The notes beneath the pieces were generated by a model. The model made no database searches and was not told the origin of the DNA. It saw only the letters and a program-made list of their open reading frames with translations. The translations under genes were made by a program, and so were the position numbers. Shown one piece after another: positions 37,934-62,367 of a DNA stretch of 64,000 bases (the stretch's first letter is position 1; every line of letters begins with the position of its first letter). This DNA comes from Candidatus Latescibacterota bacterium (lineage in GTDB: Bacteria > Latescibacterota > UBA2968 > UBA8231): contig OZ252098.1 in NCBI GenBank assembly GCA_965248355.1, positions 512,001 through 576,000 of the forward strand. The letters are read 5' to 3'.

Positions 37934-39829
37934 ATGAGAGTAGCACGATTCCTTTTCGTCGCAGGAGCCTTGGTGGCGCTCACCGCCGGCATGGCGGCCG
38001 CCCAGGGAGCCATCGGCGGCGAAGAGAACCAGATCACCGAGAGCCGCATGCCCACGGTGCTCACGGTCGACCTCGAGGACATGGCCGTCAGCAGCTTCCC
38101 CGTGGACATCCCTTTCACCACCAGCGGTTCGGCGGCCACGGTCTACCTGGCCGTGTACACCAATCTCTCCGACGCCGACCTGCCGGGGCTGACCACCGAG
38201 GGCGAGCTCAACTGGCATTCCTACCAGGAGGTCAACTACGCCCTGCACGTCTCCCCCGGCTCTCGGTTCGAGCCCGGTTCGCACTCGATCACCTGGGACG
38301 GCGCCGACATGGGCGGCAACGCCGTCGATCCGTCCGGCAGCTACCGGTTCTTCATCATCGCCCTCGATGATCAGGCGCCGATCAACATGGTGGGCTACAC
38401 CAACGCCCGGCATACGTCCGAGTCCTGCCTCGCCCGCGACCAGAACGGCGACCTCTTCATCCTCAGCGGCGGCAGCGCGGTGGCGCTCACCGACGGCGGC
38501 CCCCGCCACCTGATCCTCACCAGGGTCGGCACCAACTGGATCGAGACGCCGGGCGCCTGGCAGGCGATCGACGTGAATGACATGGTGGCTGCCGTGAGCC
38601 ACACGGACGACATCGTGCCCGCCGAGTGGGCCGGCGGCGGCAACGGCAAGCAGTACGGCTCGCTGCCCGGCGACTTCTACGGCGACTCCTGGGACGGCAC
38701 CATCTACGGGTCCATCAAGTTCAACGTCGACCCGGCCAACGGTCAGGTCACGCTCGACACCAACTACGGCACCGAGGGCGACGGCCGCATGAAGTTCGAG
38801 CCCTTCAGCGACGGCAACCTCGCCGTCGGCTCCACGGGCATCGACACCTGGGACGGCCTCATCTACTACCCGATCTATGATCGGGGTGGAGACCAACCCG
38901 CCCACTCCACCGTGGGCATCCAGGACCCGGCCACCGGCGAGGTCGTCGACGTGCTCGACCTGTCCGAGTGGAACGTGGTCGACGTGGGCGCCGGCAACCA
39001 GGCCTTCAGTCCCCACGACATCTGGGTCGACGGCACCGGCGTCTACGTGGTCGGCTACGCCGCTCCCCTTCACCTCAAGGTCAGCCTGGACGGCGAGTTG
39101 AAGTGGATCAACAACAACGGCGACGGCTTTGCCGACAGCATCGACCCCGACACGGGCGACTTCGACTACGGTTCCTTCGCCCTCACGCCCTGGAACACGG
39201 CGGGCTCCGGGAGCAAGGACGGCTGGGGCTTCGCCTACATCCCGCTGCTGGGCAGCACGACCAGCACGGTGGACATCCTCGGTCCGGACGGCACGGGGAT
39301 CCTGCACATGGTCGCCACCCACGCTCCCGCCCACTGGCCGCAGTGGGTCGAGTCGATCGAGGAGGACGGTCCCTACGACGGCCTCTACTGGGACATCGGC
39401 TCGCGCCGCGGCGGCGGCAGCGATCCCTGGGACGCGCCCGACTTCACCGGATACCCGGCGCGTCAGGCCATCCACTTCCCCTTCGACCTCAAGACGGCCG
39501 TCATCAACAGCGACACGGCGGTGGAGGAGGTCGCGGCAGCCGGTACGCCCGGCGCCTACGCTTTGCAGGACGCCTATCCCAACCCCTTCAACCCTGAGTC
39601 GACGATCCGCTTCAGCCTCCCCAAGGAGGAGCACGTGACCCTTCAGGTCTTCAGCCTGTCGGGCCAGCGGGTCAAGACCCTGCACGAGGGGTATGTCGCG
39701 GCCGGCGTCTATGAGAGCGTCTGGGACGGGATGAACGAGGCCGGGGAGAGCGTGGCCAGCGGCGTGTACCTGTACAGCCTGCAGGCCGGCTCCTTCCAGG
39801 AGACCAAGAAGCTGACCCTGCTCAAGTAG
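37934..39829 (+). CDS. Secreted acidic protein with FlgD Ig-like domains and T9SS type-A-like C-terminal domain
   Basis: AGGAG RBS and Sec signal ending AAA-Q. N-proximal HSITWDG.D..GN.V..G.Y. C-terminal L...YPNPFNP.STIRFSL...V.L.VF...GQRVKTL...WDG....G..VASGVY.Y.L......KKLTLLK. Confidence 0.8.
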   Translation: MRVARFLFVAGALVALTAGMAAAQGAIGGEENQITESRMPTVLTVDLEDMAVSSFPVDIPFTTSGSAATVYLAVYTNLSDADLPGLTTEGELNWHSYQEVNYALHVSPGSRFEPGSHSITWDGADMGGNAVDPSGSYRFFIIALDDQAPINMVGYTNARHTSESCLARDQNGDLFILSGGSAVALTDGGPRHLILTRVGTNWIETPGAWQAIDVNDMVAAVSHTDDIVPAEWAGGGNGKQYGSLPGDFYGDSWDGTIYGSIKFNVDPANGQVTLDTNYGTEGDGRMKFEPFSDGNLAVGSTGIDTWDGLIYYPIYDRGGDQPAHSTVGIQDPATGEVVDVLDLSEWNVVDVGAGNQAFSPHDIWVDGTGVYVVGYAAPLHLKVSLDGELKWINNNGDGFADSIDPDTGDFDYGSFALTPWNTAGSGSKDGWGFAYIPLLGSTTSTVDILGPDGTGILHMVATHAPAHWPQWVESIEEDGPYDGLYWDIGSRRGGGSDPWDAPDFTGYPARQAIHFPFDLKTAVINSDTAVEEVAAAGTPGAYALQDAYPNPFNPESTIRFSLPKEEHVTLQVFSLSGQRVKTLHEGYVAAGVYESVWDGMNEAGESVASGVYLYSLQAGSFQETKKLTLLK

Positions 39830-39854
39830 CGGCCAGCGGCAGTTTCGGCAGATG

Positions 39855-39900
39855 GACAAGGTGAGCGATCTCTTCGAGGGTCGCTCACCTTGTCTGTTTT
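39855..39900 (+). terminator. Rho-independent terminator-like hairpin
   Basis: Perfect 14-bp stem GACAAGGTGAGCGA/TCGCTCACCTTGTC followed by TGTTTT. Confidence 0.75.
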
Positions 39901-40046
39901 ATCCCCCTCTCCGGTCCCGGGGGACACGGCCTGATCCGGGGTTCGGCGCAGGCCGTCGCGGAGCCACTCGCCGGCCTCCACGATCCGTGGGCCGCGGGGC
40001 CGACAAGGGGCGGGATCCTCCGCTGGAAAAGGGAAGAAGGCTCTCA

Positions 40047-42194
40047 TTGGCAACAAGACTTCCTTCGCTCGTGTCGGGTCTGCTGCTTCTCGGCGTCCTC
40101 GCCGGGCCGGTCGGGGGCGATGTGCTCCGCATCGGCCACTGGGAGCAGACCACCTACTACCGCCACACCTTCAACGCCGATGAGGCGAGGGACGCCCTCC
40201 TGCGGATCACCGCCGTGGGGGAGTACGTCCTCTATCTCAACGGCGGCGAGGTCGCTTCGGACGGCGACTGGCTGACCGCCGAGGCGGTCCCCGTCTCCCT
40301 GCAACAGGGAGACAACCACATCGCCGTGGCGGTGACCAACGCCCCGGGAGAGGCCGGGGCCGGGCTCCTCCTCAGCCTTCAGGGCGGCCCGCTGGTCGCC
40401 CGCAGCACCTTCTCCGACGAGATCTCCCCGTGGTACTGGACGGGGGAGGGCCAGGAGGGCACGGGCTGGACGACGGCTGACGTGCAGAGCACGTGGAGCC
40501 GCGTGGGCGCCGGGTCGATCGACAGGGTGCGGGTGAGCGAGGCGATCTTCCATCCGGAGGCGGAGGTCGTCGCCGGCTATCCGAACGCGGTGAATCTCGC
40601 CAGCTCGCCGGAGGGCCGCATCGTCCTGGCCGACCAGCGCGGGCAGAACATCGCCCTCGGGGTCAACGCCAGCGAGGTGGGCGTCACCGACGGGAATATG
40701 GGCCTCCCGGTCTGGTCCCTGCCCCAGGGGCTGGGAGCGCTGAACCGCATCGTCGACATCGCCCTGCCGGACCTGACCCGGATCAACCGGGTCCGCGTGA
40801 TCACCAAGCCCCCCGAGGGCAACGAGACCTACAAGGGCAACTCCCTCCTCGGGTACTCGGTGCAGGTCAGCGAGGACCAGTCCCGCTGGATCGAGATGGG
40901 GGGCATCAACGACATCGAGGACCACGTCTTCACGGAGGTCCGCTTCAATCCCGTCCTGGCGCGCCACGTCCGCGTCCAGGTGACCCAGGCCGAGGTCGGA
41001 GCCGACCCCGCCAAGGTGGCGGAGGTCCAGATCTACGGGGTCGACTTTGTCCCCTCCGGGGCCTACGTCTCCCCGCCGCTGGACCTGGGGACCCCCGACG
41101 CGGTGAAGAACTTCGGCCGCGCCCGCTGGTGGGGGGAGGTGCTCCCCGCGACGTCCCTGAGCCTGCAGTTCAGCACCGGCGACAGCCCGGACACGACCGA
41201 CGGGAGCTGGAGCGCCTGGAGCGAGGAATCCGTGGACTCGGAGGTGCTCATCTCCTCACCCGAGCCCCGCCGCTACCTGCGCTACCGGGTGAATCTGCGC
41301 ACCGAGGATTTCGAGTTCACGCCCGCCCTCGACAGTCTCGAGATCGACTATGACCCTGAGGCGATCGCGGCGCGGAGCGCCACCGCTTCGGTGGTTCCCA
41401 ACGAGGCCCCCATGGGAGAGGACGTGGACTACCTCTTCAGCGTCGGCATGGCCCTGGAAGAGGGAGATGCCCTGGAACGGATCCGCATCCGCCTTCCCAG
41501 CCTCCCCACCGCCGTGAACTCGATCCAGTTCCTGGGGCAGGAGATCGCCGTGCCGGAGTTCCCCACGGGCGAGGGGGGCCTGGACGCGGGCGGGCGGATC
41601 CTGCGGCTGGCGCCCGCCGACGTGCGGGACGTGGACGTCGCCTTCGATCCCCCCCTGACCTCCGCGGACGGCGGCGAGATCTCCTTTGCCATCTCCGTGC
41701 AGTGCGCCCTCTACACCGACACCCACGATTTCCGCGCCTTCCTCTTCAGCCCGGGGTCCGACAATCCCCTGAACGTGCTGGAAGAGACCGCTGACGGCGC
41801 CTCCTGGACCGTCGTGGTGAGCGACGTCGTGGCCGGAGACCTGCTGGAGGTCAGAGCGCAGCCCCCGGCCTTCTCCCCCAATGGAGACGGGGTCAACGAC
41901 TTCACGATCATCGAGTTCGCCCTCACCAAGGTGACCGAGCCCCGCCGGGTGGACGTGGAGCTGTACGACCTGAGAGGGCGCCGGGTCCGCAGGCTGGAGA
42001 CGCCGCGGCTCATCGGCGGCCGGTACCTCCATCCCGGCCTGAGCGCGGCGGCGTCGACCTTCTCTCCCGGCTTCTGGGACGGAACGGACGATGCGGGCGA
42101 TCTCGTGCCGCCGGGGATCTACCTGTTCTCGGTGCGGGCGAACCTGGACGACGGCGACGAGGCCGTCTCCGGGGTGGTCCATGTGGTCTACTGA
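40047..42194 (+). CDS. Secreted protein with galactose-binding/discoidin (F5/8C)-like domains and FSPNGDG/FlgD-type C-terminal domain
   Basis: TTG start with signal peptide. YSVQVSED...W, V.ARHVRV.V...VAEVQIYG and RYLRYRV.L motifs. C-terminal FSPNGDGVND...YDLRGRRVR.L...WDG.D..G.LVPPGIY. Confidence 0.75.
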   Translation: MATRLPSLVSGLLLLGVLAGPVGGDVLRIGHWEQTTYYRHTFNADEARDALLRITAVGEYVLYLNGGEVASDGDWLTAEAVPVSLQQGDNHIAVAVTNAPGEAGAGLLLSLQGGPLVARSTFSDEISPWYWTGEGQEGTGWTTADVQSTWSRVGAGSIDRVRVSEAIFHPEAEVVAGYPNAVNLASSPEGRIVLADQRGQNIALGVNASEVGVTDGNMGLPVWSLPQGLGALNRIVDIALPDLTRINRVRVITKPPEGNETYKGNSLLGYSVQVSEDQSRWIEMGGINDIEDHVFTEVRFNPVLARHVRVQVTQAEVGADPAKVAEVQIYGVDFVPSGAYVSPPLDLGTPDAVKNFGRARWWGEVLPATSLSLQFSTGDSPDTTDGSWSAWSEESVDSEVLISSPEPRRYLRYRVNLRTEDFEFTPALDSLEIDYDPEAIAARSATASVVPNEAPMGEDVDYLFSVGMALEEGDALERIRIRLPSLPTAVNSIQFLGQEIAVPEFPTGEGGLDAGGRILRLAPADVRDVDVAFDPPLTSADGGEISFAISVQCALYTDTHDFRAFLFSPGSDNPLNVLEETADGASWTVVVSDVVAGDLLEVRAQPPAFSPNGDGVNDFTIIEFALTKVTEPRRVDVELYDLRGRRVRRLETPRLIGGRYLHPGLSAAASTFSPGFWDGTDDAGDLVPPGIYLFSVRANLDDGDEAVSGVVHVVY

Positions 42195-42224: not shown

Positions 42225-44930
42225 GTGAAGGCCGGAATCCTCACAGGATCCGCTGTCGCGGTGCTGGCGGCGCCCCTGCTGCTGTGCGGGTTCGCCGGGG
42301 CCCAGATGCTCTCCCGCGACGACTACCCCCTGTGGGAGAAGGAGGACTACGAGAACATCGGCCGCTTCGGGTACCGCGACTTCGACGAGCGCGACGTGGA
42401 GAGGCGGGTCTACGACCCCTTCGGCGTCTACCTGATCGACGGCGTCCCCGTCTTCGCCCTCGAGGAGACCCGCACCCAGGGACCCGAGCGGGGCAGCGGC
42501 ATCTTCAAGAGCCCCCTCTATCCGAGCATTTTCCGCAACCTGATGATCGGCATGGATTCCTACCGGGGCTGGGCGGCCTCGATCATGGTGGGCGACGCCG
42601 TGCCGACGCGGTTCTCCTCCCTCACCCTGAACCTGAGCCGGCTCAACGGCATCCGCTTCGACGCCTCCTCCCGCAAGTCGAGCTTCAGCCTGGTGGGATC
42701 GCGCATCTCCGACCCGGTGCTGCTGGCCACGGGTCTGAGCCAGAGCGGCGTGCAGGTCAACCCCGAAGGCGTCTTCGGAAGGCCGACCTTCGGCAGCTAC
42801 CTCGTGGGCGGCCACTGGGAGACGACCCTGGGCAACGTCCTCACCCTGGGATCCACCTACGTCAACGTCCACAACTTCGACAGCGTCGCGGGCCGCAACG
42901 AGGGGTCCCTCAAGGGGGTCGTCCCGTTCTCCGGCCTGGAAGAGGCGAAGTCGGTCTTCGTCATCGTGAGCGACGATTCCCACTGGGACGGCAACGGCCC
43001 CAAGGTCTTCCGCATCGAGATGTATGTCGACGGCGAGCTCCGGACCGATATCGAGCCCATGGTCCGGCTGCTGCCGTCGGTGCCCGCCCTCGTGGGCGCG
43101 GCCAACCGGGAGATCGGCCTGGGGACGAGCGAGATCAACCTGCAGCGGGCGGACAGGCCGTCGTGGCTCATCCAGAGCTACCAGATGGAGGAGATCGTCC
43201 GCGAGGGATATGCGCGCAGCGGCGCCCTCAGCCCCTTCACCAGCGGCGGCCTGTTCTTCAATGAGGGCCTGCCCGTAGGCCACGAGGGCGTTCCCTTCCT
43301 GCAGGCGGGGGGGACCGACGTCCTCGTGTACCGGTTCGAGGTGCCCCCGGGGACGAGGGAGGTCCGCTTCCGGGCTCTCGCCGCCGGGGACTACGTGATC
43401 GACGTGGCCAGCGGCCTCGGCTGGATCGGGACGGACGTGCAGTGGCGGGACTGGCACACGGTCAAGCGCGCCCCGAACAATGTCCGGGATGACGGCAACA
43501 TGGGGTGGGTCACCTTCCGGTACGGCTTTCCCACCGGCATGATCCTCTTCGGCGTGGACTTCGAGGCCAACCTTCTCGGGATCCAGGCCTGGGGGGAGTT
43601 CGCCCGGAACCGGTCCTACTTCAAGTTTCCCTCAGGCGAGGGGGAGCGCCTGGCCACCACCGAGGACGCCTGGTTCATCAACCTCTTCCGGGACATGGGG
43701 GCTTGGGACCTGGGCTTCGAGTACATGAACATGCCCTCGGCCTTCGGCACGAGCTTCCCGGCCCTCATGCAGAATCCCCGGCAGAACGTGATAGCCCCCT
43801 TCGAGCTGGTGGATGACAACGACGACCGGGACGAGTGGCCCGACCGCTGGGAGCAGGAGCGTGACTTCGCCTCCCTCAACCTCACGCCCGCCCCGGGATC
43901 GGGCCTGGGCTTCGGCGTCTTCCCCGGACTCGACGTGGACAACGACGGCCAGCGGGACAACGTCTGGTACCGCGGCGGCGACCGGGTCCTGACCTACTAC
44001 GATCAGCCCTTCGTCTTCGGCGACGACTTCAACAACAACGGGCTGGTGGACGGGTGGGAGAACGACAACCGGCCGGACTACCCCTACGACCAGGACCGCA
44101 GAGGAGGGCACGGCTTCCTCACCTGGAGGCCCTTCTCCGACCGGAAGAGCACCTGGGTGCGCCTCGGCCGCTACGACGTGCGTCAGCCCGACGGCGGCGG
44201 CCGGGACCGGGCCACCTACCTGAAGGCCAACTACCTGCGGCGCTGGGAGGGGCTGGGGCGGGTGCAGCTCAGCTACTACGGCAAGAGGGTCCGGGACGAC
44301 GTGCCCGACGATCTCTACCAGCTCAGCACCAGCTACCGCATCCTGCCCGACCGGCTGCTGCTGCGCAACAGCCTGGTGAACACCGTCCTGGCAGGAGCCC
44401 ACCTGAACACCAGCGCCCTGCCGAATCTCAACGTCTACAACGACATCCGGCTCTCCTTCAACGACCAGCGGGAGCTGATGGAGGAGAACTTCCAGCAGCC
44501 CGAGGCCCGGGTCACGACCGTGGGCTACGTGGCCCGGGCGGACTACAGCTGGCACCTCGGGCCAAACCTGAGCTTCGGTCCCATGTTCAAGGCCACCGTC
44601 AACCGCACCCTGGCGCGCCTGCCCAGCCTGAGGAGCCATACCTACACCCTGACACCGCTCTTCCGGGGTGACTACCGCCTCGCGCCGAGCACCGTGCTGC
44701 GAGGGGGGCTCCTGGGGCTGCCCTTCCGGGCGCAATACCGGAACCTGCTGTGGCCGTTCCTCGACAACGACTCCTGGTACTACATCCTGATCCTGGAGAA
44801 CCTCGCCAACTACCGCGGCATCGACGTGAGCACGAGCATCGGCTTCCAGAAGAACTTCGTCCGCTACATCTCCTCGCACCGGGTTCCCGCCGGATCCGAG
44901 CGCTACTTCATCCGGCTGCGGATCGGCTAG
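42225..44930 (+). CDS. Large exported protein, predicted outer-membrane beta-barrel with Ca-binding-type acidic loops (paralog 1)
   Basis: Signal peptide and many amphipathic aromatic-edged strands. VDDNDDRD..PD, GVFPGLD.DNDG and DFNNNG..D..E.D..PDYPY motifs. Terminal strand YFIRLRIG. Confidence 0.6.
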   Translation: MKAGILTGSAVAVLAAPLLLCGFAGAQMLSRDDYPLWEKEDYENIGRFGYRDFDERDVERRVYDPFGVYLIDGVPVFALEETRTQGPERGSGIFKSPLYPSIFRNLMIGMDSYRGWAASIMVGDAVPTRFSSLTLNLSRLNGIRFDASSRKSSFSLVGSRISDPVLLATGLSQSGVQVNPEGVFGRPTFGSYLVGGHWETTLGNVLTLGSTYVNVHNFDSVAGRNEGSLKGVVPFSGLEEAKSVFVIVSDDSHWDGNGPKVFRIEMYVDGELRTDIEPMVRLLPSVPALVGAANREIGLGTSEINLQRADRPSWLIQSYQMEEIVREGYARSGALSPFTSGGLFFNEGLPVGHEGVPFLQAGGTDVLVYRFEVPPGTREVRFRALAAGDYVIDVASGLGWIGTDVQWRDWHTVKRAPNNVRDDGNMGWVTFRYGFPTGMILFGVDFEANLLGIQAWGEFARNRSYFKFPSGEGERLATTEDAWFINLFRDMGAWDLGFEYMNMPSAFGTSFPALMQNPRQNVIAPFELVDDNDDRDEWPDRWEQERDFASLNLTPAPGSGLGFGVFPGLDVDNDGQRDNVWYRGGDRVLTYYDQPFVFGDDFNNNGLVDGWENDNRPDYPYDQDRRGGHGFLTWRPFSDRKSTWVRLGRYDVRQPDGGGRDRATYLKANYLRRWEGLGRVQLSYYGKRVRDDVPDDLYQLSTSYRILPDRLLLRNSLVNTVLAGAHLNTSALPNLNVYNDIRLSFNDQRELMEENFQQPEARVTTVGYVARADYSWHLGPNLSFGPMFKATVNRTLARLPSLRSHTYTLTPLFRGDYRLAPSTVLRGGLLGLPFRAQYRNLLWPFLDNDSWYYILILENLANYRGIDVSTSIGFQKNFVRYISSHRVPAGSERYFIRLRIG

Positions 44931-44935
44931 GCGCC

Positions 44936-51490: not shown

Positions 51491-51509
51491 AACCTCTCGG
51501 AGGTAGAGC

Positions 51510-51887: not shown

Positions 51888-51905
51888 TGCCGAGGCTGGA
51901 GGGTA

Positions 51906-53162: not shown

Positions 53163-53189
53163 GCGGGAGCAAGGCAAGGAGCAGTCGAG

Positions 53190-53918: not shown

Positions 53919-53935
53919 GCCTCCAGGAGCACGGC

Positions 53936-54352
53936 ATGGCCAGACACCGAGTTGAGCACATCCGCAGCGTCGCCGAGGAGGGGGAGCCCGATCTGACGCC
54001 GATGATCGACTGCGTCTTCCTGCTGTTGATCTTCTTCATGGTCACCACCGTCTTCCTGCACACCAAGGGGCTGGACGTGGACCTGCCGGCGCCGAGCGAG
54101 GCGGAGGAGGAGCAGAAGAAGGATATCAACGTGGTGCTGAGCGAAGAGGGGGAGATCGAGATCGGGGGGGAGCCCGTGGCGGCCTCCGACCTCGGCACCG
54201 GCCTGACCACCGCCATGGAAGAGGCCAACAACGAGAACATCATCGTCCAGGCCCACGAGGAGTGCGCCCAGAAGCACGTGGTCTACGTGGTGGACACGGC
54301 CAAGGGGGTAGGGGTGAAGGGGATCGCCCTCGTGCGGGTCCAGGAGGAGTAG
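53936..54352 (+). CDS. exbD: Biopolymer transport protein ExbD/TolR
   Basis: LTPMIDCVFLLLIFFMV, VDLP and VV.VVD.AK..G motifs. AGGAG RBS. Confidence 0.9.
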   Translation: MARHRVEHIRSVAEEGEPDLTPMIDCVFLLLIFFMVTTVFLHTKGLDVDLPAPSEAEEEQKKDINVVLSEEGEIEIGGEPVAASDLGTGLTTAMEEANNENIIVQAHEECAQKHVVYVVDTAKGVGVKGIALVRVQEE

Positions 54353-54354
54353 GT

Positions 54355-54765
54355 ATGGCCAGGCAGCAGAGTACCGAGCGGGAGCCGGACTTCAACCTGA
54401 CGCCGATGATCGACTGCGTCTTCCTGCTGTTGATCTTCTTCATGGTCACCACCGTCTTCAAGCAGCCTTACAGCCTGCAGCTGGAGCTGCCCGAGGCCCA
54501 GCAGGCGCACCGGGTGCAGGAGAAGAAGCTGGTGAGCTCGATCACCGCCGACGGGCGCATGGAGATCAACCGCGAGCTGGTCAGCGCCGCCGACCTGGAG
54601 CAGGTGCTTCTCCGGCACAAGCAGGGGACGAGGAGCCTGACCCTGATCGTGCGCACCGACAAGGAGACCAAGCACAAGTTCCTCCTCGATCTGATCGAGG
54701 TGGCCAAGCGCCTGCGGATCGAGAAGGTGGTGCTGGCCACCGAAGACGAGAAGGTCGAGCTCTGA
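54355..54765 (+). CDS. exbD: Biopolymer transport protein ExbD/TolR
   Basis: NLTPMIDCVFLLLIFFMV, LELPEA and IVRTDK motifs. Confidence 0.9.
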   Translation: MARQQSTEREPDFNLTPMIDCVFLLLIFFMVTTVFKQPYSLQLELPEAQQAHRVQEKKLVSSITADGRMEINRELVSAADLEQVLLRHKQGTRSLTLIVRTDKETKHKFLLDLIEVAKRLRIEKVVLATEDEKVEL

Positions 54766-54769
54766 TTCC

Positions 54770-56113
54770 ATGAACCTGAAGACCGCTCTCCTCGTCAGCC
54801 TGGTCTTCGTCCTCGTCCTCGGCGCCCTGCTCTACTCCAACCGGAGGGAGCAGGAGAAGGAGGAGGCCGACGTCCTCTCCCGGGAGCTGTTGATCTTCGA
54901 CAAGAGCGAGGCGGACGAGCTCACCGTCGACGGCCCGCAGGGGAGGGTGGTCTGCCGCAAGGCCGGGGACCAGTGGAGGATCGTCGAGCCCGTGGAGGTG
55001 GACGCCAGCCGCGGCGCCGTGGAGACGGTGCTGGTCAACCTGGAGCGCGCCCGTCTGCAGAAATACCTGCTCCTGGAGGAGGCCGGCGACCGCGATGTCC
55101 TCGAGGAGTACGGCCTGGATCCGCCCCACATCATGGTGACCCTTCGCGTCCGGGGGAGCGTCCTCGACACCGTCCTCTACGGGGACAGCCCCATGGGCGT
55201 GTACGCCTATGTCAAGAAGACCTCCGAGAATCGCGTCGGCATGGTCGAGTTCTACCGGCGCACCGGTGTCAACCGCGGGCTGGCCCAGCTGCGGGAGAAG
55301 CGGGCCCTGAAGTTCGAACGGGGCAAGGCGAGGGACCTGCGCGTCGAGAGCCCGGGGGACACCATCGAGGTGGCCAGGCTGGAGGACGGCTGGCGGATGA
55401 GGCTTCCCCTGGAGGCGAGAGGCGACGAGGAGGAGATCCAGGAGATCCTCAAGGGCCTGACCGCGCCGGTGAAGGAGTTCGTCGACGACACGCCGGCCAG
55501 CCTCCGCGAGTACGGCCTCGATCCGCCGCGCCTCCGCATCGAGGTGACGGCGGCCGACGGCGGCTCCCATGCCCTGTGGGTCGGCGCCGGCGCCGCGAGC
55601 GGCTATTACGCGAAGAATCTCTACCAGCCCTCGGTCTTCACCGTCGATTCGGCCCTGGTGGACCGCCTCGACGAAGCCGCCCTCGGCCTGAGGTTCAAGC
55701 GTCTCCTCGCCTTCGAGAGGCAGAAGGTGGACCGCATCGAGTTCGCCTACCCGGGCCGGACCGTCCTCTGCGTGCGGGAGGGCCAGGCGTGGCTGGCCCT
55801 CCCCCGGAAACAACCTGTGAACGGCCTGGAACTCGATGCCATCATGCACAACATGAAAGAGCTCAAGGCCGAGGGCTTCGTCTTCGGGGAACAGGACAGC
55901 GGCTCGTACGGGCTCGATCCTCCCCGGGCGAGGATCCGGCTCTGGGCGGAAGAGCGGCTCGTGGGCGATCTGGCCCTTGGCGAGGCCCAGGGAGACAGGG
56001 TCTACGCCAAGGGAAGCGAGAACGAGCTCGTCTGCCTGGTCGACAGGGGGGTGGCCGAGCGGCTGGGCGTGGACAGGATCTTCAAGGAAGGGGACCCGAG
56101 CGGTGGCGGATGA
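54770..56113 (+). CDS. DUF4340 domain protein
   Basis: N-terminal TM helix and three internal repeats, each containing YGLDPP. W....P...A..-like segments. Confidence 0.8.
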   Translation: MNLKTALLVSLVFVLVLGALLYSNRREQEKEEADVLSRELLIFDKSEADELTVDGPQGRVVCRKAGDQWRIVEPVEVDASRGAVETVLVNLERARLQKYLLLEEAGDRDVLEEYGLDPPHIMVTLRVRGSVLDTVLYGDSPMGVYAYVKKTSENRVGMVEFYRRTGVNRGLAQLREKRALKFERGKARDLRVESPGDTIEVARLEDGWRMRLPLEARGDEEEIQEILKGLTAPVKEFVDDTPASLREYGLDPPRLRIEVTAADGGSHALWVGAGAASGYYAKNLYQPSVFTVDSALVDRLDEAALGLRFKRLLAFERQKVDRIEFAYPGRTVLCVREGQAWLALPRKQPVNGLELDAIMHNMKELKAEGFVFGEQDSGSYGLDPPRARIRLWAEERLVGDLALGEAQGDRVYAKGSENELVCLVDRGVAERLGVDRIFKEGDPSGGG

Positions 56114-57357
56114 AGCGCGTCCTCTGGCTCACGTGGGGCGGCGCCGCGATCGTGGCGGCCGGCCTCGGAGGGGGCCTGTACTACCACCTCGGCGTCCTCG
56201 AGCCGAGGCGGAACCGCGCCGGGGCCGAGGCCCTCTTCGCGCAGGGCAACGCCAGGCTGAACTCGGGGGAGACGGCCGCCGCCATCGAGGACTACCAGCG
56301 GGCCGTCGACCGCGATCCCGGCTTCGTGCCCGCCTACAACGGGCTGGGCATGGCCTACCGGTCCTCGGGAGACCGGCCGCGGGCCGAAGCGCTCCTGCAG
56401 GAGGCCCTCACCATCGACCCCACCGTTCCGGAGACCTACAACAACCTGGCCATCCTCTACTCCGAGAGCGGCCGCGTCGATCAGGCGGAGGCGGTCTACA
56501 GGAAGGCCCTCACCATCGACCCGAACGCCGCCGTGACCTACTACAACCTGGGCGCCTTCTACTCCCAGGTCGGCCGTTACGCCCAGGCGGTGGAGGAGTA
56601 CGGCAAGGCGGTGCAGCTCCGGCGCGGCCTCTACCAGGCCCACAACAACATGGCCCTGGCCTACATCGCCCTCGGCAAGCCTTCCCAGGCGGTGGGGGAG
56701 CTGAAGAGATCGATCCAGCTCAACCCCCGCCAGGGCCGGGCCTGGTACAATCTCGGTCTGGCCCACGAGGAGGATGGCCGCTACGAGGAGGCGGCCGACT
56801 GCTTCCGGACGGCCCTGGAGAACGCCCCCGGCGTGGCCGACGTCCACTATCACCTCGGCGTCGTCCACGAGGGGCTGCAACGCGAGACGGAGGCCATGGA
56901 GGGGTACCAGAGGGCCCTCGCCCTCGACCCGTCGCACAGGGAGGCCCACTACCGCACCGGCCGGCTGCTGGCGGCGCAGGGCCGGCACGAGGAGGCGGAA
57001 ACCCGGTACCTGAGCGCCATCGAGATCGATCCGGAGTACGCCGACGCCCGCTACAACCTGGGCCGCCTCTACATGAAGCAGGGCCGGACCGCCGAGGCGC
57101 AGCGGGAGATGGAGCGGTTCCGCCAGATGAGCGAATACGACAAGGAGAGGGAGAACGTCAGCCGGATCCTGCTCTACATGCCCCGCGACGCCACCTCCCG
57201 CTGGAAGCTGGGCCAGGTGCACGAGAAATACGGTAAGTACGACAGGGCCATCGAGGAGTACCGGAAGGCCCTGGCCATCCGTCCCGGCTTCCAGGAACCC
57301 CGGCAGGCGCTCGAATCGGTGCTCGAGGCGCGTTCCCGGGAGGAGGACCGCAGATGA
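56110..57357 (+). CDS. Membrane-anchored TPR protein
   Basis: ATGA overlap, N-terminal TM helix, and about 9-10 canonical TPRs (A.YNLG..Y...G....A...Y..AL..DP). Confidence 0.88.
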   Translation: MKRVLWLTWGGAAIVAAGLGGGLYYHLGVLEPRRNRAGAEALFAQGNARLNSGETAAAIEDYQRAVDRDPGFVPAYNGLGMAYRSSGDRPRAEALLQEALTIDPTVPETYNNLAILYSESGRVDQAEAVYRKALTIDPNAAVTYYNLGAFYSQVGRYAQAVEEYGKAVQLRRGLYQAHNNMALAYIALGKPSQAVGELKRSIQLNPRQGRAWYNLGLAHEEDGRYEEAADCFRTALENAPGVADVHYHLGVVHEGLQRETEAMEGYQRALALDPSHREAHYRTGRLLAAQGRHEEAETRYLSAIEIDPEYADARYNLGRLYMKQGRTAEAQREMERFRQMSEYDKERENVSRILLYMPRDATSRWKLGQVHEKYGKYDRAIEEYRKALAIRPGFQEPRQALESVLEARSREEDRR

Positions 57358-60300
57358 GCTTGATCGGAATCTCGATCGTCGGTTTCACCCTGGGCATCGC
57401 CCTCCTCGCCCGGGACGTGCCCACCGAGGACTACATGCTCTCCACCTTCCAGGCGGGCCAGAGCTTCTACTCCGAGGGCGCCTACGACCAGGCCATCGAG
57501 AAGTACAGCGACGTGGGAGGGGTCCGCAGCCTGCTGCTCGACGACGCCGCGATCGTCGTCGTCGTCGGCGAGGTGGAGACCACGGTCAAGGACGCGGCGA
57601 TCTATCAGGTGGGCAACTCCTACTTCAAGATGTTCGAGGAGGAGTTCCAGGCGGCCTCGGGCCCGGGCAACGAACGGCAGCGGGAGCAGCGGCTGGAGAG
57701 GGCCCACAAGTACCTGGAGGAGGCGGTGAGCCACTTCTCCAGGGTCGAGGAGCGGGCCGACTCGGAGGAGCTGCGTATCCTCGCCCTGAGCCGGATCATG
57801 ACCAGCTGGTACAGCGCCAGGCGCTACCAGGAGGTGATCCGCGTGGGCCGGGAGTTCGTCGACAAGCATCCCGGCAGCGCCTACCTCGTGGAGGCCCTGT
57901 ACAACATCGGCTGGTCCTACTACGAGCTCGGGGAATACGCCCGCAGCATCGAGGCCTTCACCGAGTTGACGGGGCGCTTCGAGTCCGGCTTCCACGTGAG
58001 CCGGGCCCTGTTCCAGATCGGGGAGTGCTACTACGACCAGGGGCGCTACGCCGAGGCGGTCCCCTGGTACCAGCGGCTGGTGGACCGGGCCAACATCCTC
58101 GAGCTGACCGAGCAGGAGATCCAGCGGATGCAGTTCGAGAAGGTGGCCGGCCTGGTGGACGAGACCGAGTACGAGCTGACCGCCAAGGCCCAGATCCGCA
58201 TCGGAGACAGCTACAGCCGGCTGGGGGACTTCGAGCGGGCGGAGGAGTCCTACCGCGTGGTGGTCTCGGTCTTCGCCCAGGAACGGCGCCTCGTGGAGAG
58301 GGCCTACCAGAGCCTGGCGGACATGCACTTCGAGAACCGGCGGCTGGCGCAGTGCGTCGCCGCCTACCGCGAGGCCATCGACAACATACCGAACCGCATC
58401 TTCAAGGCCCGCATGCAGTTCCAGCTGGCCAAGCGCTACGCCGAGGCGAGCCGGGAGTGGGGAGAGGACCTCTTCGAGGACGCCGTCCGCGAGTACAACG
58501 TCTACCTGAAGGGCTACGCCGAGGTGGCGCCGCAGGCCGGGTACACCGCGGCCAATGTCTGGTTCGAGATCGGCCAGGTCCACTACGCCGCGGCCGAGGA
58601 GCAGGCGCAGGGAGGGGAGGACGGCCGCGAGGCCTACGGCCGGGCCCTGCAGGCGTACACCGAGATTCTCGAGCAGCATGCCGACCCGAGCTTCCTCACC
58701 GCGGCCCGATTCAACGCCGCCCTCTGCAAGCAGAGGATGGGCGGCGAAGGGGCCCTGGGCGAGGCGATCGAGGCCTATGGCCGGATCATCGAGGAGGATC
58801 CCGACGGCACCTACGCCCGGAGTTCCAGGTTCCAGTTGGCCCGCATGTACTTCGGCCGGGAGGAGTTCGACCGGTCCGCGGATACCTACGCCGAGATCAT
58901 CGCCGGGGCCCATGACTCCACCCACCTCGACATCGCCCGTTTCGAGCTGGGCCTCGTCCTGCAGAAGAAGGGCGACCTGGAGGGGGCCGTGGAGGAGTTC
59001 CTCTCCGTGCGCCCGGCGGCGCCCCAGTTCTCCCTCTCCCGCCTCGAGGCCGGCCGCGCCTGCGTGAGCCTGGAGAGCTTCGACCGGGCCCTCGAGGTCC
59101 TGTCCAGCGGCGTGAAGGCCTCCGCCGCGGACGGCGAGCGCGCCCAGTACCACTACCTGATGGGCAAGGCCTGGGCCGGCAAGCAGGAGTACGAGCGCTC
59201 CGTCGAGTCCTTCACGCAGACCATCGCCCTCACCGCGGACCCGGCCCTCGTGGAGATCGCGCGCTACGACAGGGGGACGGGCTATTCCCGGCTCGAGCGC
59301 TACGCCGAGGCGGAGAAGGACCTGCGGGTGCTGGTGGAGTCCGGCAACGAGCGCATCCGCGGACCGGCGCAGAAGATGCTCGGGCTGGCCTACCTCCGGC
59401 TCGACCGGCAGCAGGAGGCCCTGGCCAGCTACGGGCGGCTGGCCGAGACCTCCGCCGATCCCACGGAGCGGGCGGAGTACATGGTGCTCATGCTCGAGCT
59501 GTTCTTCGAGCTGGAGCAGTACGACATGGCCGTCGCCACGGGGCGCCGGATCCTGGCCATGGAGTTCGAGGACAGCCTCGAGCACAAGGACTACTGGATC
59601 GAGGAGCTGGTCTACTACCTCATCGGCGAAAGCCAGCAGCGAAGCGGCCGGAGCGAGGCGGCCCTCGCCACCTACGGCGAGGGCCTGAGGCGCTACCCCG
59701 CCTCCTACTACTCGCCGGACATGGCCTATGCCCTGGGCACCCTCCACTTCGAGAGCAACCGCCTCGACGACGCCGCCCGAAGCCTGGCCGACTTCGTGGG
59801 CCGCTTCCCCCGCTCCCCCAACGCCCTGTACGGCCGCTACTACCTCGGGTACGCCCACTTCAACCTGAGGGAGTTCGACCAGTCCCTGGAGGTCTTCCAG
59901 GCTCTCGTGGGGAGGTTCCCGGGATCGGAGGTGGCCGCCGAGGCCCTGATGCGCGCCGCCGAGAGCGCCTTCAACCTGGGCCGCTTCGACGAGGTCGCCG
60001 CCCTCTACGGCCGGCTTCTGGAGAGCTATCCCGACTCGCCCTTCAGCGACGACGCCATGTACAACCTGGCCTGGGCCTTCTACGAGTCCAAGGACGAGGA
60101 GGCCTTCATCTCCGGCCTGCAGCGGCTGCTGACCACCTTCCCGCGGAGCGAATTCGCCCCTGACGCCCGGTTCACCCTCGGCGACTACTACTTCAACAGG
60201 GAGGAGTACGAGAGGGCCCAGGCCGAGTACGAGATCGTGCTCTCCGAGTACGGCGGCTCCACCATCGCCCGGGAGGTCCCCCAGGTCCTGCGCAAGGTCC

Positions 60301-60635
60301 GTGAGATCATCGCCTACGGCGAGTACGAGCGGGCCATGGCGATCTTCACCGAGGGCCTGAGCCTGGACAAGCAGGCCAAGGGGGATGAGGCGGTGCGGAA
60401 GTTCGAGGAGGCCGTCCCCCTCTTCGTGGCCCTCATGGAGAAGTACCCCGGCACCGAGGTCGAGGTCGGCGCCCTGAGCAACCTCGGCATCTGCTACGAG
60501 TTCCTGCGCAGGTGGAAGGATGCGGTGCAGACCTACGACAGGGTGATCGCCCTGTACGAGGAGGAGAAGGCGAGTCAGGAGGCCTTCCAGTTCGCCAAGG
60601 GCCACCGCGACTGGATCGTGACCTCCCGGCTCTGA
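57354..60635 (+). CDS. Large periplasmic TPR protein (BamD/CpoB-type TPR repeats)
   Basis: Hydrophobic N-terminus. Repeated [YF]P.S....A.[YF].[LI]G units over about 1000 aa. Confidence 0.85.
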   Translation: MSLIGISIVGFTLGIALLARDVPTEDYMLSTFQAGQSFYSEGAYDQAIEKYSDVGGVRSLLLDDAAIVVVVGEVETTVKDAAIYQVGNSYFKMFEEEFQAASGPGNERQREQRLERAHKYLEEAVSHFSRVEERADSEELRILALSRIMTSWYSARRYQEVIRVGREFVDKHPGSAYLVEALYNIGWSYYELGEYARSIEAFTELTGRFESGFHVSRALFQIGECYYDQGRYAEAVPWYQRLVDRANILELTEQEIQRMQFEKVAGLVDETEYELTAKAQIRIGDSYSRLGDFERAEESYRVVVSVFAQERRLVERAYQSLADMHFENRRLAQCVAAYREAIDNIPNRIFKARMQFQLAKRYAEASREWGEDLFEDAVREYNVYLKGYAEVAPQAGYTAANVWFEIGQVHYAAAEEQAQGGEDGREAYGRALQAYTEILEQHADPSFLTAARFNAALCKQRMGGEGALGEAIEAYGRIIEEDPDGTYARSSRFQLARMYFGREEFDRSADTYAEIIAGAHDSTHLDIARFELGLVLQKKGDLEGAVEEFLSVRPAAPQFSLSRLEAGRACVSLESFDRALEVLSSGVKASAADGERAQYHYLMGKAWAGKQEYERSVESFTQTIALTADPALVEIARYDRGTGYSRLERYAEAEKDLRVLVESGNERIRGPAQKMLGLAYLRLDRQQEALASYGRLAETSADPTERAEYMVLMLELFFELEQYDMAVATGRRILAMEFEDSLEHKDYWIEELVYYLIGESQQRSGRSEAALATYGEGLRRYPASYYSPDMAYALGTLHFESNRLDDAARSLADFVGRFPRSPNALYGRYYLGYAHFNLREFDQSLEVFQALVGRFPGSEVAAEALMRAAESAFNLGRFDEVAALYGRLLESYPDSPFSDDAMYNLAWAFYESKDEEAFISGLQRLLTTFPRSEFAPDARFTLGDYYFNREEYERAQAEYEIVLSEYGGSTIAREVPQVLRKVREIIAYGEYERAMAIFTEGLSLDKQAKGDEAVRKFEEAVPLFVALMEKYPGTEVEVGALSNLGICYEFLRRWKDAVQTYDRVIALYEEEKASQEAFQFAKGHRDWIVTSRL

Positions 60636-60658
60636 TGACGGAGAGAAAGGGTGAGGCA

Positions 60659-61453
60659 ATGAGCTCCTGGCGAAAGGCGATCGGCTGGACACTGGTCTGC
60701 TGCGCGGCCCTGGCCGCGCAGGGGTGCATCATCTTCCCGCCGAGAATCCACTACAACTCCTACATGGTGCCCGCCGAGGGCGCCCAGGCGGGCGAGTTCC
60801 ACCGCACCGAGGAGGACGGCTCCATCTCCTACGTCATGGAGGGGCTCCGGCTCAACGTCCGGTTTCTCACCGACGCCGAGCTGAACGCCCTGCTGCCGGA
60901 GGACTCCTTCAAGGGGAAGTACTCGACGAATCCCTACACCTACGGCGACCACGTGGACGGCGACATGGGCTACACCCCCGACCGCTTCACCACCTTCCGG
61001 GTCAGCGTCTTCAACCAGACCTTCGCCAAGGTCCAGCTCAATCCCATCGAGGCCGTCCTGCTCACCGATCAGGGCGACGAGCTGACCTCCTACGGGATCC
61101 CCTCCACCTCGCCCTACAACAGCTTCGAGCGCTACTACCGGGGCCTGAGAGGGCAGAGCGGCAACGAGTTCTACCGCTTCGAGGTGCGCATGGGCCACGT
61201 GCGCAGCCTCAACTACGCCGAGAGCCAGCCCATCTTCAAGGGCGAGAACTACAGCGGCCTCATCGCCTTCGACGCCCTCGACCCGGAGGTACGGCGCGTG
61301 CGGCTCGTGCTCGGGGAGTTCACCCTCAAGTTCGACGAGTTCGGCGTGCCCCTGGAGACGATCGACTGCCGGTTCGACTTCCGCCGGGAGATCGAGATGT
61401 GGGAGGAGGGGGGAGAGGAGACGCTGGTGAGCGACCGCGGCCGGCAGCCCTAG
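60659..61453 (+). CDS. Conserved hypothetical lipoprotein, paralog of the N-domain of 894-2192
   Basis: Lipobox AQGC. Shared KG.YS.NPYTYGD.VD, FE.YYR.L.G.SGNE.YRF..RMG.VR and IFKGE.YSG...FD motifs. Confidence 0.75.
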   Translation: MSSWRKAIGWTLVCCAALAAQGCIIFPPRIHYNSYMVPAEGAQAGEFHRTEEDGSISYVMEGLRLNVRFLTDAELNALLPEDSFKGKYSTNPYTYGDHVDGDMGYTPDRFTTFRVSVFNQTFAKVQLNPIEAVLLTDQGDELTSYGIPSTSPYNSFERYYRGLRGQSGNEFYRFEVRMGHVRSLNYAESQPIFKGENYSGLIAFDALDPEVRRVRLVLGEFTLKFDEFGVPLETIDCRFDFRREIEMWEEGGEETLVSDRGRQP

Positions 61454-61461
61454 CCCCGCCC

Positions 61462-62367
61462 GTGCCGAAGGGTCCGCGCCGGCCGCCCCCGGGGTGGCCG
61501 GCGAAGCTGTTTCTTCTGGTTCTGCTCCTGCCCCCGATCCCCTCCCCGGCCGCCCGGCCGGGGGAGAGGATCCTGGTGGTCCCCTTCGAGGACCACAGCG
61601 ACTTCCGGGGGACCTGGGATCTCCGGCAGGAGATCCCGCAACTGCTGGGCGAGCTGCTGCGCCAGGGCCGGGCCTTCGAGATCCTGCCCTTCGACACCCT
61701 GGCCTCCCCTCCCGCCGAGGCCGGGGAGGGGGGCATCTCGAGGCCGGACCGGGAGCTCCTGGCCGGCCGCGAGGCCGGGGCCGACCTGGTCCTCGGCGGC
61801 GACATCCGGCGCTTCGCCATCAAGCGCTTCAACGTGGGCAGCCCCCTCGTGGGGGGGTACACCTCCTATAGCGTCGTCGTCGAGGTGGAGGCCCGCCTGA
61901 CGCGGGTCCTGACCGGACGCCGGGACGGGGAGGCGATCCGGGGCCGCGCGGAGGTGACCGACCAGGACCTGGGCCTGACTCTGCTGGGCAAGCCCACGGA
62001 GACGGAGGCCGCCCTCTCCCGCCTCAACGAGGTCTCCTTCGGGGCGCAGGAGTTCCGCGACACGATCGTGGGCGCCGCCACCCTCGACGCCCTCGGGAAG
62101 ATCGCCGGCGAGTTGTCCGTCCGGGACTCGGTCTCCGCCGTGCCGGATGGGAAGGTCCTCAGTCTCGAGGGTGACGGGGGATTCGCGAGCCTCGGCCGGG
62201 CCGACCACGTCGAGGCCGGCCACCGGCTCGCGGTGCATTCCCGGCGGGACACGCAGAGGGTGGGGAGCGTGCAGATCGTGGAGGTCCTGACAGCGCACCT
62301 GTCGCGATTCCGCGCCCTGGAGGGCGGGGAGGCCATCCGGGAGGGGGATCTGCTTCGCTCGCGGTAG
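61462..62367 (+). CDS. Exported protein with CsgG/TolB_N-like domain and FlgT-C-like small beta domain
   Basis: RILVVPFED, GADLVL.G.I..F and V.VEARL..V.TG motifs. C-terminal SLG....V..G..L.V......VG.V.IVEV...IREGD. Start uncertain. Confidence 0.6.
   Translation: MPKGPRRPPPGWPAKLFLLVLLLPPIPSPAARPGERILVVPFEDHSDFRGTWDLRQEIPQLLGELLRQGRAFEILPFDTLASPPAEAGEGGISRPDRELLAGREAGADLVLGGDIRRFAIKRFNVGSPLVGGYTSYSVVVEVEARLTRVLTGRRDGEAIRGRAEVTDQDLGLTLLGKPTETEAALSRLNEVSFGAQEFRDTIVGAATLDALGKIAGELSVRDSVSAVPDGKVLSLEGDGGFASLGRADHVEAGHRLAVHSRRDTQRVGSVQIVEVLTAHLSRFRALEGGEAIREGDLLRSR

Follow-up and report, generated by a model that had tools for sequence, protein, structure and literature searches.

A multi-copy gene cassette with three predicted giant outer-membrane barrels, an ExbB/ExbD motor and type IX-tailed surface proteins in a Candidatus Latescibacterota genome: a possible nutrient capture-and-import device

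What does a bacterium do with a run of 16 genes that joins an ExbB/ExbD motor to three giant predicted outer-membrane barrels, exported surface proteins and large tetratricopeptide repeat (TPR) proteins, and in which no TonB can be recognised? Such a run lies at positions 37934-62367 of the window analysed here, a 64,000-nucleotide stretch (G000:C1:512001-576000) of the single-contig 5.50 Mb genome of a Candidatus Latescibacterota bacterium with a GC content of about 68%. What is known of energised traffic at the outer membrane comes largely from TonB-dependent receptors, Tol-Pal and dedicated secretion systems. In this locus the known ExbB/ExbD motor is joined to an uncharacterised barrel family, an uncharacterised DUF4159 head and surface proteins of the type IX secretion system (T9SS) type, and the whole is multiplied in the genome in the manner of the polysaccharide utilisation loci (PULs) of Bacteroidota. 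The explanation that we favour, with a probability of roughly 0.4, is that we see here one of several copies of a modular, PUL-like cassette for the capture and import of a nutrient, built without TonB or a plugged receptor. It is based on the copy-number pattern and the sharing of few motors, on surface proteins of the lectin type, on neighbouring genes for transport and catabolism and on a TonB-like transducer. Genes were called from a listing of open reading frames (ORFs), third-position GC framing and inspection of start codons, and all 16 proteins were scanned with Pfam and NCBIfam models at E 0.01. The genes, in window coordinates, are as follows.

g01, 37934-39829, plus strand: 631 aa, exported, T9SS type A C-terminal sorting domain with tail end KxTLLK
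g02, 40047-42194, plus strand: 715 aa, exported, discoidin/F5-8 type C-like domain and FlgD-Ig/CHU_C-like C-terminal domain (CTD)
g03, 42225-44930, plus strand: 901 aa, predicted giant barrel of the position-1 type (paralogy and tree clade)
g04, 44936-47767, plus strand: 943 aa, predicted giant barrel of the position-2 type (AlphaFold2 model and Foldseek)
g05, 47767-50901, plus strand: 1044 aa, predicted giant barrel of the position-3 type (paralogy and tree clade)
g06, 50948-51490, plus strand: 180 aa, DUF5683 (PF18935, 27.7 bits, cut-off 26.7)
g07, 51510-51887, plus strand: 125 aa, small and lipoprotein-like, with a lipobox-like N-terminus
g08, 51906-53162, plus strand: 418 aa, membrane helix and periplasmic DUF4159 head (PF13709, 100.1 bits)
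g09, 53190-53918, plus strand: ExbB/TolQ-type stator subunit (PF01618, 100.6 bits)
g10, 53936-54352, plus strand: ExbD/TolR-type subunit 1 (PF02472, 89.4 bits)
g11, 54355-54765, plus strand: ExbD/TolR-type subunit 2 (PF02472, 102.8 bits)
g12, 54770-56113, plus strand: membrane-anchored DUF4340 protein (PF14238, 157 bits), confined to this cassette subtype
g13, 56110-57357, plus strand: 415 aa TPR protein with a hydrophobic N-terminus
g14, 57354-60635, plus strand: 1093 aa, giant TPR protein whose N-terminus carries a hydrophobic anchor or signal, a core component
g15, 60659-61453, plus strand: 264 aa lipoprotein, beta-sandwich with a helical insert, a core component
g16, 61462-62367, plus strand: 301 aa, CsgG/LpoB/FlgT_C-like

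The 16 genes are co-oriented and tightly packed, as a preliminary description of the locus had stated, and the spacers after g02 range from -4 to 46 nt (30, 5, -1, 46, 19, 18, 27, 17, 2, 4, -4, -4, 23 and 8 nt). The start of g02 is most likely at 40047, where a signal-peptide-like segment is found, and this leaves a gap of 217 nt after g01; with an alternative upstream ATG at 39852 the gap to g01 would be 22 nt and the product 780 aa. When positions 44000-63400 were scanned, 1 promoter-like and 6 terminator-like sites were found compared to 1.1 and 6.4 in shuffles, and since these counts are no higher than in the shuffles the ends of the operon stay undefined. The domains listed in that description, namely ExbB, two ExbD, DUF4159, DUF4340, DUF5683, two TPR proteins, two lipoproteins and a CsgG-like protein, were recovered by Pfam and NCBIfam, by lipobox-like N-termini and by the ESM Atlas. 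Its remark that no gene for TonB, a TonB-dependent receptor, TolB/Pal, PorKLMN or SprA was recognised in the cluster also stands, as no such model matched the 16 proteins; the TonB_C, Plug, TonB_dep_Rec, TolB, TolB_N, PD40, OmpA/Pal, SprA and Gld families gave no match in them, and neither did SLH, OmpA or peptidoglycan-binding domains.

The three large beta-rich proteins g03, g04 and g05, which had been described as paralogues, are indeed paralogous over their full length, with pairwise identities of 29.7% (E 6e-95), 32.6% (E 3e-82) and 30.8% (E 2e-56). No Pfam or NCBIfam family matched them apart from a weak SlpA_C match in g05 (15.3 bits compared to a cut-off of 35). An AlphaFold2 model of g04 built on 28 sequences (predicted local distance difference test score, pLDDT, 68.7; predicted TM-score 0.68) is almost wholly beta, with about 26 strands of at least 8 residues. 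In Foldseek the best match of this model was Deinococcus SlpA (8ae1_A, E 1.7e-9), followed by MtrB (6r2q_B, E 1.9e-8) and LptD (5iv9_A, E 1.3e-6), and SprA (8gl6_A, E 5e-5) is also among the matches. In VIA-align the best match was the SlpA complex 7zgx_A (Z 17.1, 413 aligned residues, root mean square deviation 8.0), with porins and ushers at Z 12-14 and TonB-dependent transporters at Z 10-12. These fold matches have identities of 6-10% and low TM-scores (0.17-0.30), and the resemblance to SlpA, MtrB and LptD is not to be equated with homology, which is not established. On this modelling g03-g05 are predicted to be very large plug-less outer-membrane barrels. Two conserved stretches of g04 are poorly modelled, the first approximately 100 residues and an Asp-rich, Ca-binding-like stretch at residues ~550-645. 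Features that would go with SlpA, LptD or MtrB, namely an SLH domain, the N-terminal domain of LptD or a cytochrome partner, were not found here. Both LptD and MtrB act together with a protein seated in or on their barrel, and by analogy this suggests a role for g15 or g02.

The possibilities that the barrels are TonB-dependent receptors or of the SprA, PorV, LptD or BamA type were considered and rejected, as there was no family match and no POTRA or Plug domain. Plug was not found in g03-g05 at E 0.01, and none of the 21 Plug matches of the genome falls in 512001-576000; no Pfam or NCBIfam receptor model, including the 22-strand TonB_dep_Rec family, matches the three proteins. The SprA model TIGR04189 matches the genome only at 427-432 kb, and the matches of the PorV model likewise lie outside the cluster. 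Thus, by family scans and genome-wide models the barrels are neither TonB-dependent receptors nor SprA or PorV orthologues. A profile of the barrel found 876 representatives (at 50% identity) among 1.84 billion proteins at E<=1e-3, 622 at 1e-10 and 292 at 1e-30. All 38 word-index matches to the barrel are unnamed or "hypothetical", and its neighbours in the ESM Atlas are unnamed clusters from Latescibacterota and Gemmatimonadota.

When g04 was searched against its own genome there were 49 matches, and 29 barrel genes were recognised genome-wide. Cassettes, which were defined by tblastn of all 16 proteins together with our own gene calls, number five full ones, at ~151-169, 496-514, 550-574 (this locus), 1575-1593 and 1954-1977 kb, and about eight reduced ones, with one to three g02-like genes, one or two barrels, one g15-like gene and TPR or peptidyl-prolyl isomerase (PPIase) genes. 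The usual order in full cassettes is g01, g02, three barrels, g14, optionally g06 and g07, g08 and g15, followed optionally by g16 and ExbB-ExbD-ExbD. The cassette regions together contain 26 barrels, 23 g02-like, 8 g15-like, 7 g14-like (giant TPR) and 7 g08-like (DUF4159) genes, and the ExbB genes linked to cassettes are only 4; just 4 of 13 cassettes have a motor of their own. With 29 barrels in the genome, this is a copy number like that of nutrient uptake; the Ton system follows the same pattern of many outer-membrane units that share few motors. In the paralogous cassettes the third barrel is immediately followed by g14, and g08 by g15, and ExbB-ExbD-ExbD is at the cassette end or missing. 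At this locus ExbB-ExbD-ExbD, the DUF4340 gene, g13 and g14 stand between g08 and g15, which is a rearrangement compared to the paralogues. The start of the window (1-2192) is the tail of cassette B (496-514 kb), with a DUF4159 gene that ends at ~877 and a g15-like gene at 1002-2192.

In a quick IQ-TREE tree of the 29 barrels of this genome three clades were obtained, with support of 100, 100 and 99 in the Shimodaira-Hasegawa-like approximate likelihood ratio test, and these clades correspond to positions 1, 2 and 3 in the cassette (position 1 has 100 and position 3 has 99). Every one of the five full cassettes contributes one member to each clade, and the topology (A,B),C,(D,E) is repeated within each of the three. 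This structure indicates that a triplication came first and that whole cassettes were then duplicated with all three types retained. The retention of each type once in all five full cassettes argues, at the level of sequence, for three non-redundant subunits. Cassette A has one extra, near-identical copy: its two position-3 barrels, at 147.5-150.3 kb (minus strand) and 160.9-163.7 kb, have branch lengths of 0.05 and 0.07 and opposite orientation, and look like a recent inverted duplication.

The barrel family was found in all 18 genomes examined of the same family in the Genome Taxonomy Database (GTDB) and in none of 12 from two other families of the class, and a first look gave up to 45-71 barrel candidates in the relatives G011 and G017. 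When one genome per species was scanned, 79 loci were obtained. Most are labelled as metagenome-assembled genomes of Candidatus Latescibacterota and some as Gemmatimonadota/Gemmatimonadetes, with single loci labelled Handelsmanbacteria, Myxococcales, Zixibacteria, Cytophagia, Zhuqueibacterota, Ignavibacteriaceae and KSB1. Among these 79 loci the genes are present as follows: g01 in 50, g02 in 73, g03 in 70, g04 in 78, g05 in 54, g06 in 36, g07 in 22, g08 in 61, g09 in 28, g10 in 17, g11 in 22, g12 in 9, g13 in 16, g14 in 56, g15 in 54 and g16 in 15. The core order that recurs in these 79 loci, which span GC contents of 38-68% and several phyla, is a g02-like CTD protein, barrel, giant TPR, ExbB, ExbD, DUF4159 and g15. 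The loci from other phyla (GC 38-54%) have a g02-like gene and a single barrel followed by g14, ExbB, ExbD, one or two DUF4159 genes, g15 and sometimes g16, and in four of five of them (L080, L083, L086 and L087) ExbB/ExbD lies between the giant TPR gene and DUF4159, while L082 ends after ExbD. It was therefore concluded, from gene order, that these phyla share an ancient core in which the motor is included. Gene order is thus conserved in related genomes, and because it recurs a chance arrangement of the cluster is ruled out.

When the ten closest orthologous loci (L009-L018) were compared, ExbB-ExbD-ExbD was found in three of them (L009, L010 and L016). In L011-L014 a co-directional sodium:solute symporter gene follows g08 after 39-80 nt in place of ExbB-ExbD-ExbD (L011:18547-20043, L012:18408-19964 and L014:18394-19890, these three being matched to Pfam SSF with E 1e-44 to 1e-47; the L013 copy was placed by tblastn at 94% identity). 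A symporter homologue with 64% identity is present elsewhere in our genome, at 4674812-4676302. A long opposite-strand ORF lies between the symporter and DUF4340 genes in L012 and L014, and L017 diverges after g06. The earlier proposal that one operon builds one complex is therefore upheld only in part and is too simple, as the locus is pieced together from modules like a mosaic, is one of five full and about eight reduced cassettes, and its closest orthologues have mostly not kept the motor.

The motor genes g09, g10 and g11 are clear members of their Pfam families, though they fall below the NCBIfam equivalog cut-offs for ExbB, TolQ, ExbD and TolR, and g10 and g11 are 38% identical. The g08 protein starts with a short cytoplasmic segment, crosses the membrane with a single helix and continues through a basic box (PKPL..FIIRKP) and a linker of about 100 residues to the periplasmic DUF4159 head. 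The basic box after the helix is conserved among DUF4159 homologues, and the head has a relative in the PDB, the uncharacterised entry 4i66 (E 1.5e-9). The predicted topology is thus like that of TonB and TolA, without TonB_C. The only TonB_C (PF03544) match of the genome is at 2229876, beside another ExbB-ExbD-ExbD set. The sequence SxxxH, the motif by which TonB and TolA engage the motor according to PMC12204202, was found in the membrane helix of 13 of 64 DUF4159 homologues from related loci, including all six from other phyla, and this supports a TonB-like transducer with a DUF4159 head for the ancestral form of the cassette. A complex prediction with the DUF4159 head of g08 (180-418) and the conserved N-terminal extension of g04 (21-110) scored 0.09 compared to a mark of 0.32, which counts neither way. 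The giant g14 matches TPR families, with a YfiO/BamD-like match of 59.9 bits, and has six paralogues in the genome, four of them directly after a third barrel. In g15 Cys23 is near-invariant among 32 sequences and the N-terminus is lipobox-like. Its model has a pLDDT of 86.5 and its fold search returned only generic beta-sandwiches (YcdA 4r4g at Z 8.5, YjhA at E 3e-3), matches no better than these, and as a lead to function this search was discarded. The g16 protein clusters with CsgG/LpoB/FlgT_C in the ESM Atlas (0.94) and had no Pfam match at E 0.01. Outside the cluster, 14 kb downstream of cassette B, the minus strand of the window at 15067-16601 carries genes for an ExbB-like protein of 225 aa, an ExbD-like protein of 143 aa and a third product of 132 aa, and a similar trio with ExbB-like and ExbD-like genes lies 8 kb downstream of cassette A at 176.6-178.1 kb.

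The surface proteins carry tails of the T9SS type. In g01 FlgD_ig (60.3 bits) and Por_Secre_tail (25 bits) were found by Pfam and TIGR04183 (37.1 bits, cut-off 23) by NCBIfam, and comparison with three paralogues identified its type A tail end. In g02 the F5_F8_type_C match (26-27 bits; 27.3) and the CHU_C match (24.5 bits compared to a cut-off of 27) are both slightly sub-threshold; tails of the g02 type share FTPNGDGxND ... WDGRD ... VAY, and the g02 paralogue family has 23 members in this genome. When 26 g01/g02-type proteins were examined with Pfam, FlgD_ig was found in 23, CHU_C in 21 (E<=1e-3) and F5/8 type C in 8, and no enzyme domain was found in any of them. Since eight carry lectin-type domains and none an enzyme domain, these proteins look like binders. 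A PDB sequence search with g01 and g02 gave only weak matches to immunoglobulin (Ig)/FlgD and CBM32-like proteins. The genome has SprA away from the cluster (605.8 bits summed), two PorU genes above the cut-off with 48 weaker PorU-model matches, nearly all at the C-terminal (CTD) end, and a PorV-like gene next to PorU (157.8 bits, below the cut-off of 250). As judged from these matches a separate canonical T9SS outer-membrane set is present elsewhere in the genome, so that secretion of the CTD proteins does not call for a new machine such as had been suggested. Models of GldL, GldM and GldN had no match in the genome and GldK reached only 85 bits compared to a cut-off of 350, in a search of uncalibrated sensitivity in which no control genome matched. 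The GldM, GldL and GldN models also gave no match in five genomes of other phyla that bear cassettes, in 31 from the phylum of G031 and in 41 of the own phylum, and this uncalibrated result does not show absence. A T9SS without recognisable GldKLMN in this genome is only a lead. Just past cassettes A and K, at 169855-170328 and 4414747-4415208, there are genes with matches of 61-68 bits to the GldK model, in its C-terminal half.

Upstream of the cassette, in window coordinates, are three further genes.

32907-34250, plus strand: N-acetylglucosamine (GlcNAc) 2-epimerase-family gene (Pfam)
34299-36275, minus strand: DUF6785/DUF6784 polytopic membrane protein (Pfam; about 12 hydropathy segments)
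36313-37539, minus strand: GlcNAc 2-epimerase-family gene (Pfam)

These divergent neighbours (32907-37539) are likely to be functionally linked to the cassette. The DUF6785-like family has 26 copies in the genome and 7 of these lie within 11 kb of a barrel where, by a rough estimate, about 2.6 would be expected; it is an expanded family that may be a nutrient permease. A PDB sequence search with the protein had no match. The flanks of full cassettes (56 proteins) contain DUF6785/6784 (4), DUF4838 (3), FG-GAP/UnbV_ASPIC (3), TPR (3), Peptidase_M28 (2) and GlcNAc_2-epim (2), those of reduced cassettes (67 proteins) contain TPR (7), FG-GAP/ASPIC (6), Rotamase (6) and DUF6784 (3), and a sulfatase, a CBM9 protein and a GFO/IDH/MocA oxidoreductase occur as single neighbours. 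The epimerases, DUF6785/6784, the three DUF4838 proteins, sulfatase, CBM9 protein, oxidoreductase, M28 peptidases and SSF symporter make a catabolic and transport context for the cassettes.

Further out in the window, a DDE_3/helix-turn-helix transposase gene (31629-32753) separates an M28 peptidase gene (30476-31609) from the first epimerase gene, and downstream, at 62940-64000, are a CesT_Tir_1/YbjN-like and a PspA/IM30 gene with no apparent relation to the cassette. With regard to expression, 17 runs from several studies contain at least half of the sampled words of 42225-51490, and three RNA libraries labelled sponge metagenome (two studies) gave contigs of 118-518 nt, of which those aligned to the locus are 95-100% alike, have a depth of 2-9 and scatter over g03, g04, g05, g06, g08/g09, g11/g12 and g14/g15. 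These fragments fit transcription, and carry-over of DNA is possible too; the many uncovered bins of the locus carry no information on the expression of those parts.

How, then, might such a cassette work? In an import cassette g01 and g02 would be exported by the separate T9SS of the genome and displayed at the cell surface, where g02 with its discoidin lectin-type domain would probably dock on the barrels through its conserved C-terminal region. The three non-redundant plug-less barrels, perhaps as a heterotrimer, would form a gated passage through the outer membrane, a role which their large, plug-less predicted fold and the lack of any Plug or TonB_dep_Rec match would fit. The periplasmic side of the device would be built from the three lipoproteins (g15, g07 and g16) together with the giant TPR protein, g14, and the ExbB-ExbD-ExbD proton motor would energise gating through the TonB-like g08 and/or the anchored g12-g14. 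The substrate would then cross the inner membrane through a neighbouring permease, DUF6785/6784 here and the sodium:solute symporter in the orthologous cassettes, and adjacent sugar-converting enzymes would process it. Gene content, paralogy, the predicted barrel fold, conserved order, copy number and flank content are the observed ground for this scheme, from which we infer all of the physical contacts, the direction of transport and the substrate.

This scheme resembles Ton/SusCD in its ExbB/ExbD motor, the single-pass TonB-like topology of the transducer, the many outer-membrane units per few motors, the binding protein of the cell surface encoded beside the barrel and the catabolic and inner-membrane transport genes alongside. 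It differs in that no TonB_C, Plug, 22-strand receptor family or SusD was found here, the barrels are a separate family of ~900-1050 residues, the transducer head is DUF4159 and the binding protein is a CTD protein of the T9SS type and not a lipoprotein. Thus, the cassette would be like Ton/SusCD in its way of working, but it lacks what defines a TonB-dependent receptor, TonB, SusD, SprA/PorV or Tol-Pal. It belongs with the envelope systems coupled to a motor driven by the proton-motive force, and there is a real chance that it is a distinct class of transporter.

Several observations weigh against import. The confidence of the barrel model is only moderate, and so large a plug-less pore would need some means of being kept shut. 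The g08 of this window and its nine nearest orthologues have no SxxxH and no histidine in the helix, so that g08 is only one candidate for coupling to the motor at this locus, and as seven of the ten closest orthologous loci have no ExbB-ExbD-ExbD a motor in cis is not obligatory. DUF6785 is only modestly enriched near barrels, with 19 of 26 copies elsewhere. When the 123 flank proteins were scanned, the 25 leading families included no SusD-like, TonB-dependent receptor or regulator genes and few classical carbohydrate-active enzymes, and the six PPIase genes and the TPR genes that flank reduced cassettes would fit secretion or assembly too.

This last point leads to the alternative that survives best, though we consider it doubtful, namely that the cassette is a display or secretion device linked to the T9SS, in which the giant barrels would be dedicated outer-membrane partners that anchor or translocate the adjacent CTD proteins, while the TPR proteins, lipoproteins, PPIases and ExbBD would play the roles of SprE/PorW, PorV, PPI and GldLM. 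PorP/SprF-like proteins are such outer-membrane partners of type B CTD cargo, and the pair of a g02-like protein and a barrel is the most conserved feature of the loci (g02 in 73 and g04 in 78 of 79). The CTD of the g02 family is of the CHU_C or FlgD-Ig type, but the CHU_C match of g02 itself is sub-threshold and the NCBIfam type B C-terminal model did not match g02 at E 0.01. PPIase genes adjoin six reduced cassettes and SprA is among the Foldseek matches of the barrel. The likeness to T9SS cargo and their partners extends to CTD proteins beside a cognate barrel, TPR and PPIase neighbours and a giant barrel; the barrels are, however, not SprA or PorV orthologues and the motor is of the ExbBD and not the GldLM type. 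That GldL, GldM and GldN are unmatched and GldK weak despite SprA, two PorU and a PorV-like protein would agree with this alternative, but those searches are uncalibrated. With a canonical SprA present a second translocon is unneeded, own motors occur in less than a third of the cassettes, and symporter and permease genes in or beside cassettes would be unexpected for secretion.

A further explanation, which is improbable as an account of the whole, is that g01-g08, ExbB-ExbD-ExbD and g12-g16 are independent modules that became adjacent by happenstance, with the motor serving, for example, Tol-like maintenance of the envelope. The different places of g14 and g15 in the paralogous cassettes, the replacement of the motor by a symporter in L011-L014, the opposite-strand ORF before DUF4340 in L012 and L014 and the rarity of g12 and g13 (9 and 16 of 79 loci) all agree with this. 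It does not agree with the finding of ExbB/ExbD in the same order between giant TPR and DUF4159 in four of five loci of other phyla, nor with cassettes D, E and F, which also have ExbB next to cassette genes, and unlike Tol-Pal the cluster has no TolB beta-propeller or OmpA-type Pal lipoprotein. It is partly true: it holds in part for this locus and leaves the cross-phylum core unexplained. Lastly, it is very unlikely that the cassette drives surface motility in the manner of Agl-Glt or serves, like SlpA, as a structural tether of outer membrane and envelope. The Agl-Glt parts list of one TolQ-like and two TolR-like subunits, large TPR proteins and several barrels resembles the one here (g09, g10 and g11 being the stator subunits), and the SlpA barrel is the best structural match of g04. 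However, a motility or structural core would hardly come in 13 cassettes with 29 barrels in one genome, which weakens the gliding analogy of the preliminary description, the 16 proteins have no SLH, OmpA or peptidoglycan-binding domain, and the lectin domains and transporter neighbours would be left unaccounted for.

No published description of such a cluster was found, in keeping with the earlier impression of a parts list unlike that of known systems. Literature searches on DUF4159 returned nothing relevant, only the Pfam database paper, those on type IX secretion in Gemmatimonadota or Latescibacter nothing relevant, and those on the outer membrane or ExbB of Latescibacterota nothing relevant among the matches listed. 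The closest published description found, as far as its covered sections go, is that of vWA-headed (von Willebrand factor type A), motor-driven force-transducer loci by Williams-Jones et al. 2025 (PMC12204202), which comprise TPR, tolQ-like, two tolR-like and transducer genes. The order TPR, tolQ-like, tolR-like(s), transducer described in those sections is shared by L080, L083, L086 and L087, whereas in this window it is rearranged to DUF4159, ExbB, ExbD, ExbD, DUF4340, TPR, TPR. Function is unknown for both, and the head here is DUF4159, the only one of the two that g08 matches, and not vWA. The main text of PMC12204202, supplements aside, does not mention DUF4159, Latescibacter or Gemmatimonad, and its covered sections describe no giant barrels, CTD proteins or multi-copy cassettes.

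Taken to its furthest, the import explanation would make these cassettes a third, independently evolved energised outer-membrane transporter besides TonB-dependent receptors and secretion systems. Heteromeric trios of plug-less barrels would be fed by lectins displayed through the T9SS and gated by ExbB/ExbD through a DUF4159-headed transducer and a giant TPR scaffold. In Latescibacterota and neighbouring candidate phyla they would thereby do the work of SusCD, and where no GldLM is detectable they may supply the missing energy link of the T9SS. We regard this larger proposal as speculative and rather unlikely. If import is the function, the cassettes would help to explain how a poorly known phylum feeds on polymers, and the logic of SusCD would have evolved twice from different components. 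If it is display or secretion, they would bear on how T9SS cargo are energised and anchored outside Bacteroidota. In either case the single-barrel form of Ignavibacteriaceae, Zixibacteria and KSB1 would be a simpler system for study.

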